NCBI GenBank assembly: GCA_963675595.2
Contig: CAXXLZ010000002.1
Span: 2,112,001-2,176,000 of the forward strand
Reading direction: 5' to 3'
DNA from: Thermodesulfobacteriota bacterium
GTDB taxonomy: Bacteria > Desulfobacterota > Desulfarculia > JACQYL01
DNA: 64,000 nucleotides
Below are positions 1 through 7,175 of the stretch, in pieces. The translations under genes and the position numbers were made by a program. The notes under the pieces were generated by a model. The model was not told where the DNA came from. It did no database searches and saw nothing but the letters and a program-made list of their open reading frames with translations. Every line of letters begins with the position of its first letter. Position 1 is the stretch's first letter.

Positions 1-755
1 GTAAGGGCGGCGGTGACCCCCAACGCCGAATTGGTGAGGGCGAGCCCGGCCACGTACAAAACGCCGTGCACCACGATCCTTCCTCTCCCGGTCCCCGACC
101 GGCCGCCGAAGTAGGCGGCCGTAATGGGAATCAACGGGTACACGCAGGGAGTCAGGTTCAGGGCCACGCCACCCAGAAAGATGCCCAGTAGTGTCCACAG
201 GGCGGCCAACCCGGTGAAGGAACCGGGGGACAATGGCTGCCCGGCGCCTACCGAAGCCTGCGGCTTCGAACTCGCCGTGGGACGCCCCAGTCCTTGCCAC
301 TCGGGGAATCCCTGAGGATAGCGATATACGTTGCGGTAGCCCAATTGGACGGCCACCCGGGCCGCCGAGTCGCTGCGGACTCAGGTGAGCCCCGCTCAGT
401 AGAACACAAGGGTCCGATCCCGATCTCCTCCCAAGTAGGCTTTCAGTTCCTCTTTCTTCGTGAAACGGGCCCACCAGGTGGGTTCCATGGGGAAGTTGCC
501 CGCACCTTGGATATGTCCGGTTCGGTATTCCCATTCCTGACGCGTATCCACCAGAAGGAGTCCCTGACGGTCCTTGCGGTAGCGTTCCCAGAGTTCATCA
601 GCGTTCATCAGCCGGTAGCCGCCGGCTCGGGCTTCGGCTTCAACGTCCTCCCAAGTTGCCTGTTGTGGAGCCACGGGCCTGCTCGTGTACCACGCGATAC
701 CGGCGGCGGCCGACATGCAAAGAAGTACTATTATGATCTTATTTATCTTTTTCAT
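1..755 (-). CDS. Rhodanese (UxxxxU)-DsbD/CcdA membrane-domain fusion selenoprotein, runs off window start
   Basis: ORF 396-776 stops at TGA after LVFY. The frame continues U-AGLT-U-VRSDSAARVAVQLGYRNVYRYPQGFPEW (rhodanese C-terminal half), then LNLTPCVYPLIP (DsbD motif), with no other stop. TGAs at 396-398 and 381-383; hairpin at 348-366; GGAGA RBS before ATG 755. Confidence 0.85.
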
Positions 756-873
756 GAAGGCATCTCCACTTCGCACCGGTTCCCCGCACCTCCCTTTACT
801 CCGATGCGGAGGATCCCGGGCCGCCTCTAATTCGCCGTCTCGATAGTCGTTCGTGTCGCCCGACCGGACGTTG

Positions 874-2010
874 TCAGCGGCTTCATGTACCGCCCGCGGG
901 ACTGCACGCGGGCGCTTCCGTCGGTTTGTTCCCGAGTTCGGATACCGGTTTGTTTCCGGGTTCCGCCGCCGGTCGCTCGGACGGGGACATGGAATCGTAA
1001 AGCAGCTTGATCCGTGTGGCTCCCACGGTCATGGCCACCATCATGGCTTCCTTCAGTTCCTCTTCACCGGCTCCCAATTCCCTCGCGACCGCAAGGCAAT
1101 AGTTGGCTCATGGATCGCAGCCGGCGGCCAGGGATGCTCCGAGGGCGATCAAGTGCTTGGTCTTCCGGTCCAGAACACCGTCCGCGTAAACGCCTTCAAA
1201 AAAATCCCCATATTTGTCCAATGGATTCATGTTCGACCCCTTGTCCCTCAAAGAATAAACCGGCGGCGACTCCGCCCGGATCAACACGCCCTTGGTCACG
1301 GGGGAGGAATCGAAACCCGTTTCGGACACCAACTCCACATGCGTGAATCCCGACGCCTGAATCATTTCCAGGAAAACCTTTCCCGGTATCGCGCCGCCCA
1401 GTCAATGGTGCCATTGAGATATCCGGCCGGCCTTGTCGGAAGGCGCCTCGCCCACCAGTACCTGATCCGCGATCATCAGGCGCCCTCCGGGCCTCAGGAC
1501 CCGACGTACCTCGCGAAGCGCCGCCTTCTTATCCCCGATCAGGTTGAACACGCCGTTGGAAAGCACTACGTGGAAACTGCGGTCCGGAAAGGGCAGGTCC
1601 GTGGCGGACCCTTCCAGGAAAGTCACGTTTCCAAACCCGGTCAGGTGCCGGTTCCGCTCCGCTCGGTGCAGCATCTCGGGCGTCATGTCCACTCCGGCGA
1701 CACGCCCCTCGGAACCCGTCATGAAGGCGGCCGCCAGCGAATCCACGCCTCCGCCGCAGCCGATGTCCAGCACGGTTTCGCCTTTTTCCACCGGACCCAG
1801 AAAGAAGGGATTCCCCACACCGCAATAAGACGCTGAGACCTCGTCCGGGAGATTGCGAAGGAAATCGGGGTCATATCCCAACAATTCGAGTCCCTTCCTC
1901 CCCGTGGGATATCGAAACATGCCCTCGGGACTTCCGGCCGCCTTCGAATACCTGGCCCGGATTCCCTCATGAATTTTTTCCAGATCGTCGCCGGATAGTG
2001 TTAGTTCCAC
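874..2010 (-). CDS. ArsM-like SAM methyltransferase fused to an AhpD/CMD domain, 3 predicted Sec (378 aa)
   Basis: ORFs 1402-2010, 1108-1365 and 883-1077 share one frame and are separated only by TGA: QWHH-U-LGGA (ArsM W-x-x-C-x-x-GA position), GCDP-U-ANYC (AhpD CxxC) and GGT-U-SR-stop. SAM motif LDIGCGGG and YCGVGNP are present. A hairpin follows each TGA. Confidence 0.8.
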
Positions 2011-2158: not shown

Positions 2159-3543
2159 CATAAGCGCTAACTTAAGCCTTTTGTTTTGGTGAGGTTTATG
2201 GTACCGTTGCCGCCAAAGGAGGTGGCAATGGAGCGTCTCGTTTTTTCCGAGGAAATGGAAGACTGGGAAGTTCTCCAGGGTTTTCTTCCCGATGGCTGGC
2301 AATCCAAAGCAAGGGAACTTGGTGCCGTTGTCAGATACCGTAAGTTCGTGGACGCCGAAGGTCTGTTGCGAACGCTTCTGATCCATCTGGCGGAAGGTTG
2401 CTCACTTCGGCTGACGGCGGCCAAAGCCAGGTTCGGCAACATTACGTCGATTTCCGACGTAGCTCTCCTAAAACGACTGAATAAATGCGGAGAGTGGTTT
2501 CGGTGGATGGCCTTAGGGGTCATGGAGAAATGGTTTCGAAAGCTGCCCGCCGTTGTTTTTGGAGAGAATTCACGCATCAGGTTGATCGATGCCTCCACCA
2601 TTCAAGAACCTGGAAGTACCGGAACGACTTGGAGGGTCCATTATTCCATACAATTGCCTTCGCTGCGCTGCGACGAAGTCTATGTAACAGACCCCAAGAT
2701 CGGAGAATCCTTCACCAATTTCAAAGTCCATGGCGGTGAACTTCTTGTAGCGGATAGAGCCTATTGCACACCAAGAGGAATTCACCATGTCATAGACAAC
2801 GGCGGCGACGTCCTGGTTCGAATGAAACACCGTGTCGCCATGGTGGACAAGCAAGGGGAACGATTCCAATTACTCCCTCATCTAAGGACGTTACGTGTAA
2901 ATAAGCTTGGCGACTGGGATGCATTCGTTCCATTTGAACAACGCTTGGTTGCAGGTAGAATCTGTGCCATCAAGAAGAGCAAAGACGCCACTGAAAAAGC
3001 TCGTAAAGCGATAGAAAAAGAGGCGAGGAAAAAAGGTCGCCAAGTTACTCCGGACACCCTCGAAGCGGCGGCCTACATATTTGTTTTCACAACATTGGGC
3101 CGTGAAATCTCGCCCTCTCAGGTCCTCGAGATGTACCGAGGTCGATGGCAAATTGAACTCGCTTTCAAGCGTCTAAAGTCCATTCTCGGTTTAGGCCATC
3201 TTAGAAAGACCGACATCGAAGGAGCCAAGGCCTGGATCCATGGGAAACTACTGGTGGCTTTCTTAGTGGAGGCCATGATCGCCGCAGGCGAATCTTTTTT
3301 TCCCTGGGGATACCCACTCCAAAAAGAACCACCGTAGAAATCGATGCTTCTGGAGAGAGACCATGTTTATGTTACACCTGCTGAAACAAGCCGTGAACCC
3401 TAAACTCGGCTTGGCCGAATGCATTGCCGGCTGGGATAACATATCTTTTTATTTGCGAGAACCGCCAAGGAAACGAGCACTTCAGCGGCTGATTCCTCAG
3501 ACGGAAAGAAGCATAGCAAACAATGCTTAAGTTAGCGCTTATG
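2159..3543 (+). mobile_element. IS4-family insertion sequence, copy 1 (1385 bp)
   Basis: 19-bp terminal IR CATAAGCGCTAACTTAAGC; 11-bp target duplication CCCCCTGCCCC (2148-2158 and 3544-3554). Confidence 0.95.
2228..3337 (+). CDS. IS4-family DDE transposase
   Basis: IDAS, ADRAY and YRGRWQIELAFKRLK (YREK signature); AAGGAGG RBS before ATG 2228. Confidence 0.93.
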   Translation: MERLVFSEEMEDWEVLQGFLPDGWQSKARELGAVVRYRKFVDAEGLLRTLLIHLAEGCSLRLTAAKARFGNITSISDVALLKRLNKCGEWFRWMALGVMEKWFRKLPAVVFGENSRIRLIDASTIQEPGSTGTTWRVHYSIQLPSLRCDEVYVTDPKIGESFTNFKVHGGELLVADRAYCTPRGIHHVIDNGGDVLVRMKHRVAMVDKQGERFQLLPHLRTLRVNKLGDWDAFVPFEQRLVAGRICAIKKSKDATEKARKAIEKEARKKGRQVTPDTLEAAAYIFVFTTLGREISPSQVLEMYRGRWQIELAFKRLKSILGLGHLRKTDIEGAKAWIHGKLLVAFLVEAMIAAGESFFPWGYPLQKEPP

Positions 3544-3555
3544 CCCCCTGCCCCC

Positions 3556-4940
3556 CATAAGCGCTAACTTAAGCCTTTTGTTTTGGTGAGGTTTATGGTA
3601 CCGTTGCCGCCAAAGGAGGTGGCAATGGAGCGTCTCGTTTTTTCCGAGGAAATGGAAGACTGGGAAGTTCTCCAGGGTTTTCTTCCCGATGGCTGGCAAT
3701 CCAAAGCAAGGGAACTTGGTGCCGTTGTCAGATACCGTAAGTTCGTGGACGCCGAAGGTCTGTTGCGAACGCTTCTGATCCATCTGGCGGAAGGTTGCTC
3801 ACTTCGGCTGACGGCGGCCAAAGCCAGGTTCGGCAACATTACGTCGATTTCCGACGTAGCTCTCCTAAAACGACTGAATAAATGCGGAGAGTGGTTTCGG
3901 TGGATGGCCTTAGGGGTCATGGAGAAATGGTTTCGAAAGCTGCCCGCCGTTGTTTTTGGAGAGAATTCACGCATCAGGTTGATCGATGCCTCCACCATTC
4001 AAGAACCTGGAAGTACCGGAACGACTTGGAGGGTCCATTATTCCATACAATTGCCTTCGCTGCGCTGCGACGAAGTCTATGTAACAGACCCCAAGATCGG
4101 AGAATCCTTCACCAATTTCAAAGTCCATGGCGGTGAACTTCTTGTAGCGGATAGAGCCTATTGCACACCAAGAGGAATTCACCATGTCATAGACAACGGC
4201 GGCGACGTCCTGGTTCGAATGAAACACCGTGTCGCCATGGTGGACAAGCAAGGGGAACGATTCCAATTACTCCCTCATCTAAGGACGTTACGTGTAAATA
4301 AGCTTGGCGACTGGGATGCATTCGTTCCATTTGAACAACGCTTGGTTGCAGGTAGAATCTGTGCCATCAAGAAGAGCAAAGACGCCACTGAAAAAGCTCG
4401 TAAAGCGATAGAAAAAGAGGCGAGGAAAAAAGGTCGCCAAGTTACTCCGGACACCCTCGAAGCGGCGGCCTACATATTTGTTTTCACAACATTGGGCCGT
4501 GAAATCTCGCCCTCTCAGGTCCTCGAGATGTACCGAGGTCGATGGCAAATTGAACTCGCTTTCAAGCGTCTAAAGTCCATTCTCGGTTTAGGCCATCTTA
4601 GAAAGACCGACATCGAAGGAGCCAAGGCCTGGATCCATGGGAAACTACTGGTGGCTTTCTTAGTGGAGGCCATGATCGCCGCAGGCGAATCTTTTTTTCC
4701 CTGGGGATACCCACTCCAAAAAGAACCACCGTAGAAATCGATGCTTCTGGAGAGAGACCATGTTTATGTTACACCTGCTGAAACAAGCCGTGAACCCTAA
4801 ACTCGGCTTGGCCGAATGCATTGCCGGCTGGGATAACATATCTTTTTATTTGCGAGAACCGCCAAGGAAACGAGCACTTCAGCGGCTGATTCCTCAGACG
4901 GAAAGAAGCATAGCAAACAATGCTTAAGTTAGCGCTTATG
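3556..4940 (+). mobile_element. IS4-family insertion sequence, copy 2 (appears identical to copy 1)
   Basis: Same 19-bp IRs; 11-bp target duplication CCCCTGCCCCC (3545-3555 and 4941-4951). Confidence 0.95.
3625..4734 (+). CDS. IS4-family DDE transposase
   Basis: Protein identical to copy 1. Confidence 0.93.
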   Translation: MERLVFSEEMEDWEVLQGFLPDGWQSKARELGAVVRYRKFVDAEGLLRTLLIHLAEGCSLRLTAAKARFGNITSISDVALLKRLNKCGEWFRWMALGVMEKWFRKLPAVVFGENSRIRLIDASTIQEPGSTGTTWRVHYSIQLPSLRCDEVYVTDPKIGESFTNFKVHGGELLVADRAYCTPRGIHHVIDNGGDVLVRMKHRVAMVDKQGERFQLLPHLRTLRVNKLGDWDAFVPFEQRLVAGRICAIKKSKDATEKARKAIEKEARKKGRQVTPDTLEAAAYIFVFTTLGREISPSQVLEMYRGRWQIELAFKRLKSILGLGHLRKTDIEGAKAWIHGKLLVAFLVEAMIAAGESFFPWGYPLQKEPP

Positions 4941-5081: not shown

Positions 5082-5390
5082 TTATCCTTCCATGGCTTCC
5101 GTCACCGCTGCGGAGAGAGCCCCCATTTCGGGAATGTGGTCGAAGGCAAGGCGTCCGTTGATCACCAGCGATGGAACCGGAGGTTTGTCTCCGCATAGCC
5201 GCTTGAGTTCCTCCTGCCTGGCGAGGCCCTCCCGTTCCCCCACGTCCACCACCGTCCACTCCAATCGCCCCTCGGGCAACTCTTCGGCCAATTCCTCCAA
5301 AACGGCCAATGCCAAATCACACAGCATGCATCCTTTCTTCTTGGCCACGATCTCCACGAATACCCGGCGGTTTTCCAGTGCCATAATCAT
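5082..5390 (-). CDS. Thioredoxin/glutaredoxin-like small protein (CxxC)
   Basis: GCMLC motif and VPSLVING cis-Pro motif; start at ATG 5390 or 5384. Confidence 0.75.
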   Translation of the reverse strand: MIMALENRRVFVEIVAKKKGCMLCDLALAVLEELAEELPEGRLEWTVVDVGEREGLARQEELKRLCGDKPPVPSLVINGRLAFDHIPEMGALSAAVTEAMEG

Positions 5391-5512
5391 CCCTACGGAC
5401 AATAACGCCTCTCCGAGGTTGCGTTCTCCCCCATGAGGCCTGGTTTCAAACGGTTCCCGCACATTGCGCCTCGCCGGAAGGCACGCTTTCCCCTCCCGGC
5501 GAGCTGCGGATG

Positions 5513-5767
5513 TCAGTCTTCCTCTTCCACCTTGATCCTTACGTCCGCGTAGCGGGTTCTTTTCTTGATCTGAGTGATCAGTTTTTCGGGATCCGTCTGC
5601 GAAGGATCATATTTCACTTTCGCACGTTTAAACACGGTACTGGTCTCGTACTCCAATACACCGGGTGACTCATCCAGAGCCACTTTGACCATGCCTTCTC
5701 AAGTCAGTCACTCCATCCTGGGGATGTAGAACGCCACTTCATTCACGATCGTATTTTCTCCCGACAC
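5513..5767 (-). CDS. Heavy-metal-associated (CopZ/MerP-like) selenoprotein, MxUxxU (84 aa); missing from the ORF track
   Basis: AGGAGG RBS plus GTG. Translation: ...FYIPRME-U-LT-U-EGMVKVALDESPGVLEYETSTVFKRAKVKYDPSQTDPEKLITQIKK. TGAs at 5708 and 5699 replace both Cys of MxCxxC; hairpin at 5665-5683. Confidence 0.88.
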
Positions 5768-5859
5768 GTCCGCCTCCTTTCCACGGCTTCGCATCCTGAT
5801 TCGGGGCGGTCCCCAAAAGGTCAAGCCTTCGCACATCAAGCCGTTTCGAACCCTGATGC

Positions 5860-6210
5860 TCAGAAGTTGAAGACCTGGGCTTCGGCCGCCAGCTCGATGA
5901 GATGCGGTCCTCCGTCCAGCACCATATTGGAGTAGAATTTGGCCTCGTCCACCTGACGAGCGCGGGCGCAGGGAATTCAGACTCCCACGGGGATCTCGTG
6001 CTCCACCAGGTGGGGGAAATAATCGTTGGGACAATCTCCCGTTTTGGTTTTTTCGTTGAAATCCCGGGTGGAATCCGCCCAAAGCGTTCCGTCGTCGATG
6101 AAGAACAGATTGACCGCATGCCCGGCCGCATGGGCCACTTTGGCCAGCTGGAAACAACGCGTAGCCGAGTCCACCTCGTCCCTGCTCAATACAAACAGAA
6201 ATTTCGCCAA
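5860..6210 (-). CDS. DsrE/F-like sulfur-relay selenoprotein, UxxC (116 aa)
   Basis: VNLFFIDDG DsrE motif; readthrough of TGA 5977 gives GV-U-IP-C-ARARQV...QVFNF; hairpin CTCGTC-AGGTG-GACGAG starts 16 nt downstream. Confidence 0.88.
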
Positions 6211-6264
6211 ACAGCGCCTCCTTTCTTCTCGGCCGAGACTCCGAAGAGGCCGAGGTTCATGGTT

Positions 6265-6738
6265 TCAATCGCTTGGAATGGAAGGAATCTTCCCCTCCGT
6301 TGCGAGCTTCTTGATCAAGAAACGGACTCCCGACCCGGAAACGCCCAGGTCTTCGGCAAGGCGAGCCGGATCGGCGCTTCCCTTGCTGCGCACCAAGGCG
6401 AGAACCTCCTCCTCCAGCTCTTCCAGCCAGTCCTCGAAGAGCACCAAAACTTCGGGCTCCGTAACCGCCTTCAATTGTTCGGATCGGCTCACCTTCTCCA
6501 CCAAACTTCGGCACATCTGCGTTGGATCGACACCTTCGTCCATGCATTCGGCCAGTCAACGGTGCACCATGCCGGCGGTCTTTTCATCGGCTCGCTCCCC
6601 GAAGAGTTCGACGACGAACCTGAGACGCTCCTCTTCTTCCATGAGCGCCAGACGTTTTCCGAGCAGGGAGGAAAGCAGGGGAAGCGCGTCCCGGTCTTCC
6701 ATGGAGTCCACCATCCGTTCCAAAGTCTCCAAATTCAT
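6265..6738 (-). CDS. Uncharacterised selenoprotein (UxxxC) with C-terminal winged-helix-like domain (157 aa)
   Basis: ORFs 6556-6738 and 6265-6543 are in frame across TGA 6556: GMVHR-U-LAE-C-MDEGVDPTQMC; hairpin at 6523-6542 with AGGTG loop. Confidence 0.75.
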
Positions 6739-6758: not shown

Positions 6759-7175
6759 TTAGAAGATTTTGGCCGCTTTCCCGAGATCTTCGGCGAGGGA
6801 GGAAAGGCTCGTCAGGATTTCCCCCACACGTTCATCGGCCGACCGGTAATAAATGAAGGGGCCCCGCCGCTCCACTTGCACCAGAAAGGAACGTTTCAGT
6901 TCTTTGAGATGATGCGAAACCAGGGGTTGGGAGAGGCCGAGTTCCTCCACGATTTTCGACACGCTCTTTTCCTTGCGGCTCACACATAGAAGAATTCTCA
7001 GGCGATTCTCATCGGAAAAGCACTTGGACAGGAAGGCGACACCCTGAAGGTTCAGTGAATCCACGAGCCGCGTTGCGGAATCGACGGGCATGGGCGTCTG
7101 ATTTCGAGACGGAGGTTCAAGCATGCGGGTCCGTTCGCAATGAGGGTTCAACGTAATCAACATATCAATATACAT
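6759..7175 (-). CDS. ArsR/SmtB-family transcriptional regulator (true start probably downstream, near 7124 or 7091)
   Basis: FSDENRLRIL...LSQPLVSHHLKELK...ERRGPFIYY HTH signature. Confidence 0.9.
   Translation of the reverse strand: MYIDMLITLNPHCERTRMLEPPSRNQTPMPVDSATRLVDSLNLQGVAFLSKCFSDENRLRILLCVSRKEKSVSKIVEELGLSQPLVSHHLKELKRSFLVQVERRGPFIYYRSADERVGEILTSLSSLAEDLGKAAKIF

Follow-up and report, generated by a model that had tools for sequence, protein, structure and literature searches.

In bacteria, DsbD, ScsB, and CcdA are described as carrying electrons from cytoplasmic thioredoxin into the cell envelope (PMC5403849). In the family table of a 2026 review (PMC13188914), TsoB is the only reported DsbD-type electron conduit that is fused to a rhodanese, and it is listed there with the motif UxxxxU and two selenocysteine (Sec) residues, with credit to Haft and Tolstoy 2025 (mSystems 10:e0141724, cited here through PMC13188914). 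The part of that review devoted to Tso describes it as a 'three selenoprotein operon' (PMC13188914). We have analyzed a gene at the left edge of a 64,000-nucleotide (nt) stretch of DNA from a Thermodesulfobacteriota bacterium (assembly GCA_963675595.2, contig CAXXLZ010000002.1), which we call the window (G000:C2:2112001-2176000 in the coordinates used here). The gene is a genuine, intact tsoB, and its product belongs to the family of rhodanese/DsbD fusion-like selenoproteins of the Tso system of sulfate-reducer-type bacteria. An initial annotation of the window, made from its sequence, had treated the protein as new. In this respect it was mistaken, since the protein belongs to a named family (TsoB, NF045694) whose UxxxxU motif and operon, like the family itself, have been published and entered in NCBIfam. 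What we add is evidence for two abutting selenocysteine insertion sequence (SECIS) hairpins, a set of exported C-x4-C and C-x4-U paralogues that provide Cys/Sec pairs for both Sec sites, and the layout of the IS4-interrupted, expanded Tso locus of this genome.

Membership in the family is clear from the profile match. With the NCBIfam model NF045694 (seleno_TsoB), the protein reaches 954.8 bits, over the cut-off of 805, and its residues 6-575 align with positions 2-571 of the 572 positions in the profile. When the same model is used in a six-frame search of the genome, the locus scores 942.7 bits with two TGA codons inside the match. Alongside the profile score, the protein has the remaining features that define the family, namely a UxxxxU motif with two Sec residues in the rhodanese loop and the fusion of a rhodanese to a DsbD-like part.

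As the initial annotation had anticipated, the 3' part of tsoB lies outside the window. We took this part from the genome DNA to the left, where the gene continues for 1026 nt past the window edge; when TGA is read as Sec, the frame extends to a protein of 594 amino acids (aa) and gains a C-terminal thioredoxin domain. The portion inside the window encodes 251 residues that begin with MKKINK and a hydrophobic stretch and proceed through a soluble domain containing FY-U-AGLT-U-VRS and a linker to LTPCVYPLIP. These elements, which are on the minus strand, lie where the initial annotation had placed them, and its description of an exported rhodanese that has a UxxxxU loop and is joined to a DsbD transmembrane domain is borne out by the Pfam domains of the completed protein, which are Rhodanese, DsbD_TM, and, at residues 463-571, thioredoxin families (approximately 54 bits), in that order. 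Under translation table 11 the frame is broken twice, by a TGA at 398-396 and a TGA at 383-381 (codons 120 and 125), and automated gene calls made with that table divide tsoB into two open reading frames (ORFs).

Comparison of the gene with its relatives identifies both of these in-frame UGAs as selenocysteine codons. Among 401 genomes of the phylum, 26 contain TsoB matches over the cut-off, and all 30 of these matches contain exactly two TGAs. The loop FY-U-AGL[T/A]-U-VRSD is identical in the 26 orthologues that we extracted, and both sites are TGA in every one of them. We also compared a sample of 80 loci from named relatives (Syntrophobacteraceae, Desulfobacteraceae, Desulfobulbaceae, Desulfomonile, Desulfacinum, Nitrospirota, and others). 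The U-x4-U loop is present in 61 of these loci, 58 of which match a strict pattern that requires U at both sites and 3 of which have variant loops; the other 19 loci matched the DsbD part only or did not fit the loop pattern. No Cys is found at either Sec site in the 26 orthologues and 61 named genomic copies. Fused orthologues with two TGAs are the rule, as opposed to homologues that always encode the two domains separately with non-TGA stops.

A word-based search of 5.8 billion predicted proteins with residues 1-180 returned four proteins, three of which are truncated C-terminal ORFs. This search found no fused Cys form; it did not include the exhaustive representative search or the 'shorter' and 'longer' length classes, so stand-alone or Cys forms are possible elsewhere. 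The C-terminal ORFs of 453-461 aa that are present in the protein database are mis-called second halves of tsoB.

The positions of the two residues within the rhodanese fold point in the same direction. U120 aligns with the catalytic Cys of the FYC motif in the solved rhodaneses 6mxv, 3d1p, and 1uar. The active-site loop of TsoB is two residues longer than those of 6mxv and 3d1p, which show a 2-residue gap in the alignment, and it is this extension that carries U125. The genome encodes the machinery needed for decoding UGA as Sec, with matches over the cut-off for selB (404.2 bits against 242), selA (621 against 268), and tRNA-Sec (77 against 47); a search of the window itself for tRNA genes found none. 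Furthermore, exported rhodanese paralogues encoded in the same genome have loops of equal length and carry Cys at the first of the corresponding positions and Cys or Sec at the second, in the combinations C-x4-C and C-x4-U.

These paralogues are found at three loci. At L005:1522-2052 (-) lies an exported rhodanese with a C-x4-C loop. At L006:1363-2403 (+) lies an exported C-x4-U rhodanese with a CSTC motif in the region that follows it, and an additional C-x4-C rhodanese lies just upstream of it. We considered whether the L006 protein might be a fusion of a rhodanese with a thioredoxin fold and set the idea aside, as the match to AhpC-TSA_2 (20.1 bits) is below the cut-off of 27 and gives a hint only. 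At L008:1108-2466 (+) lies a triple-rhodanese protein with a C-x4-U loop and an N-terminal CxxCH motif. Among the matches in other genomes, one TsoB match (G360:C14:444866-446519) comes in two overlapping pieces, at model positions 4-291 with two TGAs and 278-554 with one TGA, which points to a frameshift in this copy or to an error in its assembly.

The initial annotation had described one hairpin, at 348-366, lying 14 and 29 nt from the two UGAs. That hairpin (hairpin 2) is indeed present at these distances, with a stem of 7 base pairs (bp) and the loop CGGGU, and it shows covariation. However, the idea of one hairpin for two UGAs is probably incomplete, as a second conserved hairpin (hairpin 1) lies at 367-382, beginning 13 nt after the first UGA (UGA1) and reaching into the second (UGA2). 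We scored covariation over 78 distinct sequences, with a smaller, 26-sequence version for hairpin 2. In hairpin 2, 99.6% of cells are paired. Its pair 42-54 is GC in 59 sequences, AU in 13, CG in 4, and something else in 2, and its pair 45-51 is CG in 73, UA in 4, and UG in 1. These compensatory changes fall at two third-codon, synonymous positions, and the hairpin is also kept where the encoded peptide differs (AARVA to AARLA or AASLA). Hairpin 2 appears in both the minimum free energy (MFE) fold and the centroid fold.

Hairpin 1 has 96.7% of its cells paired, and its pair 27-34 is CG in 73 sequences, GC in 3, and UG in 2, which amounts to a single compensatory flip from CG to GC, in three related Nitrospirota-type sequences. 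A second line of evidence comes from codon usage. Across the 26 orthologues (138 invariant-residue columns with codon choice), the codons that never vary synonymously are the two TGAs, Val126 (GTC), and Asp129 (GAC), and the third bases of the Val126 and Asp129 codons pair with each other's first bases in hairpin 1.

The limits given for bacterial SECIS (bSECIS) elements in the relevant part of the review are an apical loop of 3-9 nt, an upper stem of 4-16 bp, a G within the first two loop positions, and a loop located 16-37 nt after the UGA (PMC13188914). Both hairpins are within these limits: the loop of hairpin 1 is 6 nt and that of hairpin 2 is 5 nt, G is the second loop base in each, and the 5-bp stem of hairpin 1 leads to a loop that starts 18 nt after UGA1, while that of hairpin 2 begins 21 nt downstream of UGA2 and 36 nt downstream of UGA1. 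The folding energy of the 54-nt stretch is ordinary (z = -0.31; 75 of 200 shuffles of this single GC-rich sequence fold as well), so the support for the hairpins comes from comparison between sequences and not from folding energy. The MFE fold contains an alternative hairpin directly after UGA1 (alignment columns 13-18/23-28), which we rejected: 76.7% of its cells are paired, a value that is reached by 441 of 500 shuffles, and two of its base pairs cannot form in 59 and 46 of the 78 sequences. Taken together, these comparisons indicate that tsoB probably contains two adjacent SECIS-like hairpins rather than one, and we favor two tandem SECIS elements over a single one shared by both UGAs and located 21 nt from UGA2 and 36 nt from UGA1. 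Under this arrangement, each UGA would be served by its own mRNA hairpin starting 13-14 nt downstream, and hairpin 1 would overlap UGA2.

Topology prediction and structural comparison were used to place the Sec-containing domain relative to the membrane. The N-terminal hydrophobic segment has a Kyte-Doolittle peak of 1.92 at residues 7-25 and is preceded by three Lys residues, and residues 2-25 are helical in the predicted model. Hydropathy reveals this one N-terminal segment and eight more in the DsbD part (residues 183-456), and counts of Lys and Arg in the loops, interpreted by the positive-inside rule, assign both the rhodanese and the thioredoxin domain to the outer face of the membrane, so that both soluble domains are predicted to lie outside the cytoplasm, as the initial annotation had supposed for the rhodanese. 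An AlphaFold model of TsoB has a mean predicted local distance difference test (pLDDT) score of 70.8 and a predicted template modeling (pTM) score of 0.50, with values of approximately 80-94 in the soluble domains, the rhodanese domain among them. In a Foldseek search of the PDB, the top 10 hits for the C-terminal domain are DsbD-gamma chains with template modeling (TM) scores of 0.77-0.80, and among them is 1vrs, in which the N- and C-terminal domains of DsbD are joined by a disulfide. Four Cys residues are invariant in all 26 orthologues: Cys204 in helix 1, Cys320 in helix 4, and Cys490 and Cys493, which form the CxxC motif of the thioredoxin domain. These data establish the predicted architecture of TsoB as an N-terminal signal or anchor, an exported rhodanese, an eight-helix DsbD-type core, and a C-terminal DsbD-gamma-like thioredoxin domain.

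An electron relay that ends at the Sec pair fits this architecture and topology, and we take it as the simplest reading because the rhodanese occupies the place of the DsbD alpha domain. By analogy to DsbD, TsoB would act like a DsbD whose N-terminal immunoglobulin (Ig)-like domain has been exchanged for a rhodanese. Reducing equivalents of cytoplasmic thioredoxin would traverse the membrane via Cys204 and Cys320, which would hand them over to Cys490 and Cys493 of the outward-facing thioredoxin domain, and these in turn would pass electrons on to Sec120 and Sec125. The nucleophile would be Sec120, located at the catalytic rhodanese position, and the chalcogen or metalloid species that it accepts would be sulfane sulfur, selenium, or an arsenic-type oxyanion. 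The adduct would be resolved by Sec125 through a Se-Se bond, which the relay would then re-reduce. From the domain order and the DsbD analogy, we infer both the relay and the diselenide.

Stated as a combination of tsoB identity, two Sec residues, a DsbD-like relay to the Sec pair, and two-hairpin decoding, this reading is one that we consider probable on balance. A more specific version can be offered tentatively, as a possible account. In it, TsoB would be an outward-facing, self-contained selenoenzyme with a Se-Se (or Se-X-Se) center in the enlarged loop as the terminal acceptor of a DsbD-type relay, by which cytoplasmic thioredoxin would drive chalcogen or metalloid reduction outside the cytoplasm. 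Two abutting SECIS hairpins would decode its pair of Sec codons, which are spaced only 15 nt apart. Since hairpin 1 contains UGA2, it would have to melt before the second Sec insertion.

Several observations weigh against the relay and the two-hairpin decoding. Model confidence is low in the membrane core (pLDDT approximately 50-57 at residues 180-370). TsoB falls under the DsbD subfamily cut-off, with 261.1 bits against 330 (NF001419 / PRK00293) in a match that covers residues 184-575 only, and the DsbD alpha domain is absent from it, the N-terminal domain being a rhodanese. A diselenide is expected to be harder to reduce than a disulfide; therefore, reduction by a CxxC thioredoxin domain is not self-evident. 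Hairpin 1 draws its support from one compensatory event and the codon invariance, its pair 24-37 is unpaired in 8 of the 78 sequences, and it is absent from the single-sequence MFE fold. Finally, the gene context is mixed, with an ArsR-type regulator and arsenic genes near this copy on one side and DsrE-like and GcvH-like neighbors of the sulfur-relay type on the other.

The comparison with described systems bears on what the rhodanese might do. TsoB shares with DsbD of the Escherichia coli type a transmembrane core with two conserved Cys residues, a C-terminal gamma thioredoxin domain, and the predicted location of both soluble domains outside the cytoplasm, and it differs in having a rhodanese with a Sec pair in place of the Ig-like alpha domain. 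In DsbD, this N-terminal, Ig-like alpha domain carries a Cys pair and serves as the docking site for DsbC, DsbG, or CcmG. The end acceptor of TsoB thus likely lies within the same protein and is an enzyme-type active site rather than a docking domain. Sulfurtransferase rhodaneses have a canonical short active-site loop, which the TsoB loop does not match. Sud of Wolinella is a periplasmic single-Cys rhodanese, and TsoB differs from such proteins (PspE, Sud), which have one Cys, the canonical short loop, no Sec, and no built-in electron supply. What TsoB has in common with Sud and with PspE of E. coli is an exported rhodanese fold whose targets are thiols or sulfur species of the envelope, and PspE has been described as interacting with the Dsb network (PMC5403849).

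Closer in the loop itself are the single-domain rhodanese selenoproteins called 'form 1' (UxxS), to which, on our reading of the motif in the review table (PMC13188914), the exported C-x4-C and C-x4-U rhodaneses of this genome appear to belong. Like TsoB, these proteins have an enlarged loop in which another chalcogen residue follows the catalytic one at a distance of five positions and precedes x-R/L-S, and they have N-terminal export signals. They differ from TsoB in having a catalytic Cys, at most one Sec, and no DsbD fusion.

Table 1. Coordinates of tsoB, its predicted elements, and neighboring genes (window positions unless other coordinates are given).
Feature	Position	Strand	Remarks
tsoB, 5' part, codons 1-251	1..755	(-)	ATG start at 755-753; runs off left window edge
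tsoB, full gene, 594 codons	G000:C2:2110974-2112755; L002 10755..8974	(-)	continues past left window edge; TGA stop at codon 595
Shine-Dalgarno-like GGAG	764-767	(-)	8 nt 5' of the tsoB ATG; read from the sequence
Putative N-terminal signal peptide or signal anchor, residues 1-25	681..755	(-)	MKKINK plus hydrophobic stretch; hydropathy and model
Rhodanese domain, residues 52-154	294..602	(-)	PF00581, 60 bits against cut-off 22.2; PDB rhodaneses align
DsbD transmembrane core, start (residues 187-251)	1..197	(-)	PF02683, residues 187-398, 149.2 bits
First redox Cys, Cys204, in LTPC	144-146 (codon)	(-)	within DsbD core
Sec120, first in-frame UGA (codon 120)	396..398	(-)	rhodanese catalytic Cys position
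Sec125, second in-frame UGA (codon 125)	381..383	(-)	inside 2-residue enlargement of active-site loop
Hairpin 1, GAGUC / loop CGCAGC / GACUC	367..382	(-)	starts 13 nt after UGA1; contains G and A of UGA2; candidate SECIS for UGA1
Hairpin 2, 6-7 bp, loop CGGGU	348..366	(-)	starts 14 nt after UGA2, 29 nt after UGA1; candidate SECIS for UGA2, possibly UGA1 too
ArsM/AhpD-domain fusion selenoprotein	874-2010	(-)	NF041537, 515.4 bits against 510
IS4-family element, two tandem copies	2159-3543 and 3556-4940	(+)	between tsoR-tsoA and arsM/ahpD-tsoB; NF033592, 139.4 bits against 115
Thioredoxin-like ORF	5085-5462	(-)	related to 'HUIPC motif thioredoxin-like (seleno)protein', 51.9 bits, below 105; Cys, no TGA
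Heavy-metal-associated-type small ORF	5516-5794	(-)	two TGAs in ME-U-LT-U-EG at the usual CxxC place
DsrE-like ORF	5863-6264	(-)	in-frame TGA in GV-U-IPC
tsoA, LULAXC-motif selenoprotein, one TGA	6268..6738	(-)	NF045695, 195.2 bits against 170; 188.8 bits in genome search
tsoR, ArsR/SmtB-type regulator of the Tso operon	6762..7175	(-)	NF045707, 143.3 bits against 115
GcvH-related gene	between tsoB and tsoC		213.6 bits against 150
tsoC, one TGA	two genes downstream of tsoB		150.9 bits against 45

The neighborhood of the gene confirms that it is part of a Tso operon, as the full-length match over the cut-off, the UxxxxU motif with two Sec residues, and the domain order are accompanied by the expected neighbors TsoC, TsoA, and TsoR. 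In other genomes, the compact order TsoR-TsoA-TsoB-TsoC recurs. Within 1.5-kb flanks of orthologous loci, TsoA is encoded in 21 of 25, directly upstream of tsoB, and TsoC likewise in 21 of 25; within 3-kb flanks of named loci, counting matches that cover at least half of the query, TsoC is found in 47 of 58, TsoR in 36, and TsoA in 29. The present locus departs from this order in two ways. First, the Tso genes are co-located and not contiguous: tsoR and tsoA lie approximately 5.5 kb upstream of tsoB, and the gap holds three further genes (a DsrE-like ORF with a TGA, a heavy-metal-associated-type ORF with a U-x-x-U motif, and a thioredoxin-like ORF), the two IS4 copies, and the ArsM/AhpD selenoprotein gene. 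The IS4 copies encode identical 383-aa transposases, have 22-nt terminal inverted repeats, and are 12 nt apart. Second, a GcvH-related gene lies between tsoB and tsoC, an arrangement found elsewhere in only 2 of 25 and 4 of 58 loci.

Several of these neighbors also appear to encode Sec. The ArsM/AhpD gene, whose product joins an arsenite methyltransferase to an AhpD domain, has TGAs in the contexts WHH-U-LGG and CDP-U-ANYC, and translation table 11 splits it into two ORFs. At its C-terminal end are two further, closely spaced TGAs (GGT-U-SR-U), one of which may specify a third Sec, because the family is listed with three Sec residues in the review's table (PMC13188914). The heavy-metal-associated-type ORF is matched best in NCBIfam by MerTP, by 'UxxU metal-binding (seleno)protein' (NF041115, where its 39 bits fall short of the cut-off of 95), and by MerP. 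The DsrE-like ORF has no NCBIfam match at E <= 0.001, and a similar DsrE-like ORF adjoins tsoB in 1 of the 58 named loci (L080). To the left of the window, downstream of tsoC and on the same strand, lies an arsenic-type island (L002 1-8000; G000:C2:2102001-2110000) that contains a second ArsR, a permease related to efflux proteins of the SO_0444/SaoE type, ArsE-like thioredoxins, ACR3, a thioredoxin-coupled ArsC, and a CcdA-like membrane protein between two exported thioredoxins.

The clues that this context gives to a substrate are of two kinds. On the metal or metalloid side are TsoR, an ArsR/SmtB regulator, and the adjoining arsenic island. On the side of a sulfur or selenium relay are the rhodanese itself, the DsrE-like ORF, and the GcvH-related protein. 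DsrE-like and GcvH-related proteins are associated with sulfur relay, and they are neighbors of tsoB in a minority of loci only. Arsenic-related neighbors are also rare across the family.

The first set of clues raises the possibility that the Sec pair is mainly a binding site for soft metals or metalloids (As(III), Hg(II), Sb, Te, or Se) and that TsoB is a periplasm-facing trap or chaperone in an ArsR/SmtB-controlled resistance system, its DsbD part merely keeping the selenols reduced. This would account for the metalloregulator TsoR, for the proximity of this copy to the ArsM/AhpD selenoprotein, ACR3, ArsC, the second ArsR, and the ArsE-like thioredoxin, and for the heavy-metal-associated-type UxxU protein in the same cluster, and ArsM_AhpD is encoded next to tsoB in 5 of 58 named loci. 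Most tsoB neighborhoods, however, are without arsenic genes, with ACR3 and a UxxU protein of the metal-binding type each found in 1 of the 58. In addition, the first Sec is located exactly at the catalytic rhodanese position and the Arg-Ser after the loop is kept, which suggests chemistry on a bound anion and not simple chelation, and a full DsbD-gamma-like relay would be costly for mere maintenance. We consider a metal trap unlikely.

Somewhat less likely still is that the relay does not end at the rhodanese, such that the DsbD core and the thioredoxin domain reduce other envelope proteins and the rhodanese is an independent, membrane-tethered sulfur or selenium transferase. Ordinary DsbD and CcdA homologues are described as serving several periplasmic partners (PMC5403849), and the free exported C-x4-C and C-x4-U rhodaneses of this genome do without a fused DsbD. 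In TsoB, however, 30 of 30 matches and 61 of 80 loci keep the fusion and both Sec residues together, and no split or Cys form was observed there. The rhodanese also sits exactly where the alpha domain sits in DsbD, and alpha is the domain that is reduced by gamma, according to the title of the 1vrs entry. Moreover, separate CcdA/DsbD-like genes are available in the genome for general duties. It is highly improbable that the TGAs are ordinary stops, in which case the locus would encode an exported rhodanese fragment of 119 aa and, from an internal GTG, a separate DsbD-like protein of 461 aa: ORF calling with translation table 11 yields exactly these two products and C-terminal ORFs of that kind are in the protein database, but the fragment would stop one residue short of the catalytic position, all orthologues retain the frame, the motif, and both TGAs, the hairpins downstream of the TGAs are conserved and show compensatory changes, the genome has both the Sec-decoding machinery and paralogues with Cys at these positions, and the curated family model is itself a selenoprotein model.

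TsoB is one of few bacterial proteins with two selenocysteines only a few residues apart, and its two-hairpin arrangement, if borne out, would be a compact natural test case for SelB-dependent decoding of closely spaced UGAs. If the relay to the Sec pair operates as proposed, it would show how anaerobes bring very strong reducing chemistry to the cell envelope, and it would provide a handle on what the Tso operon detoxifies or metabolizes.

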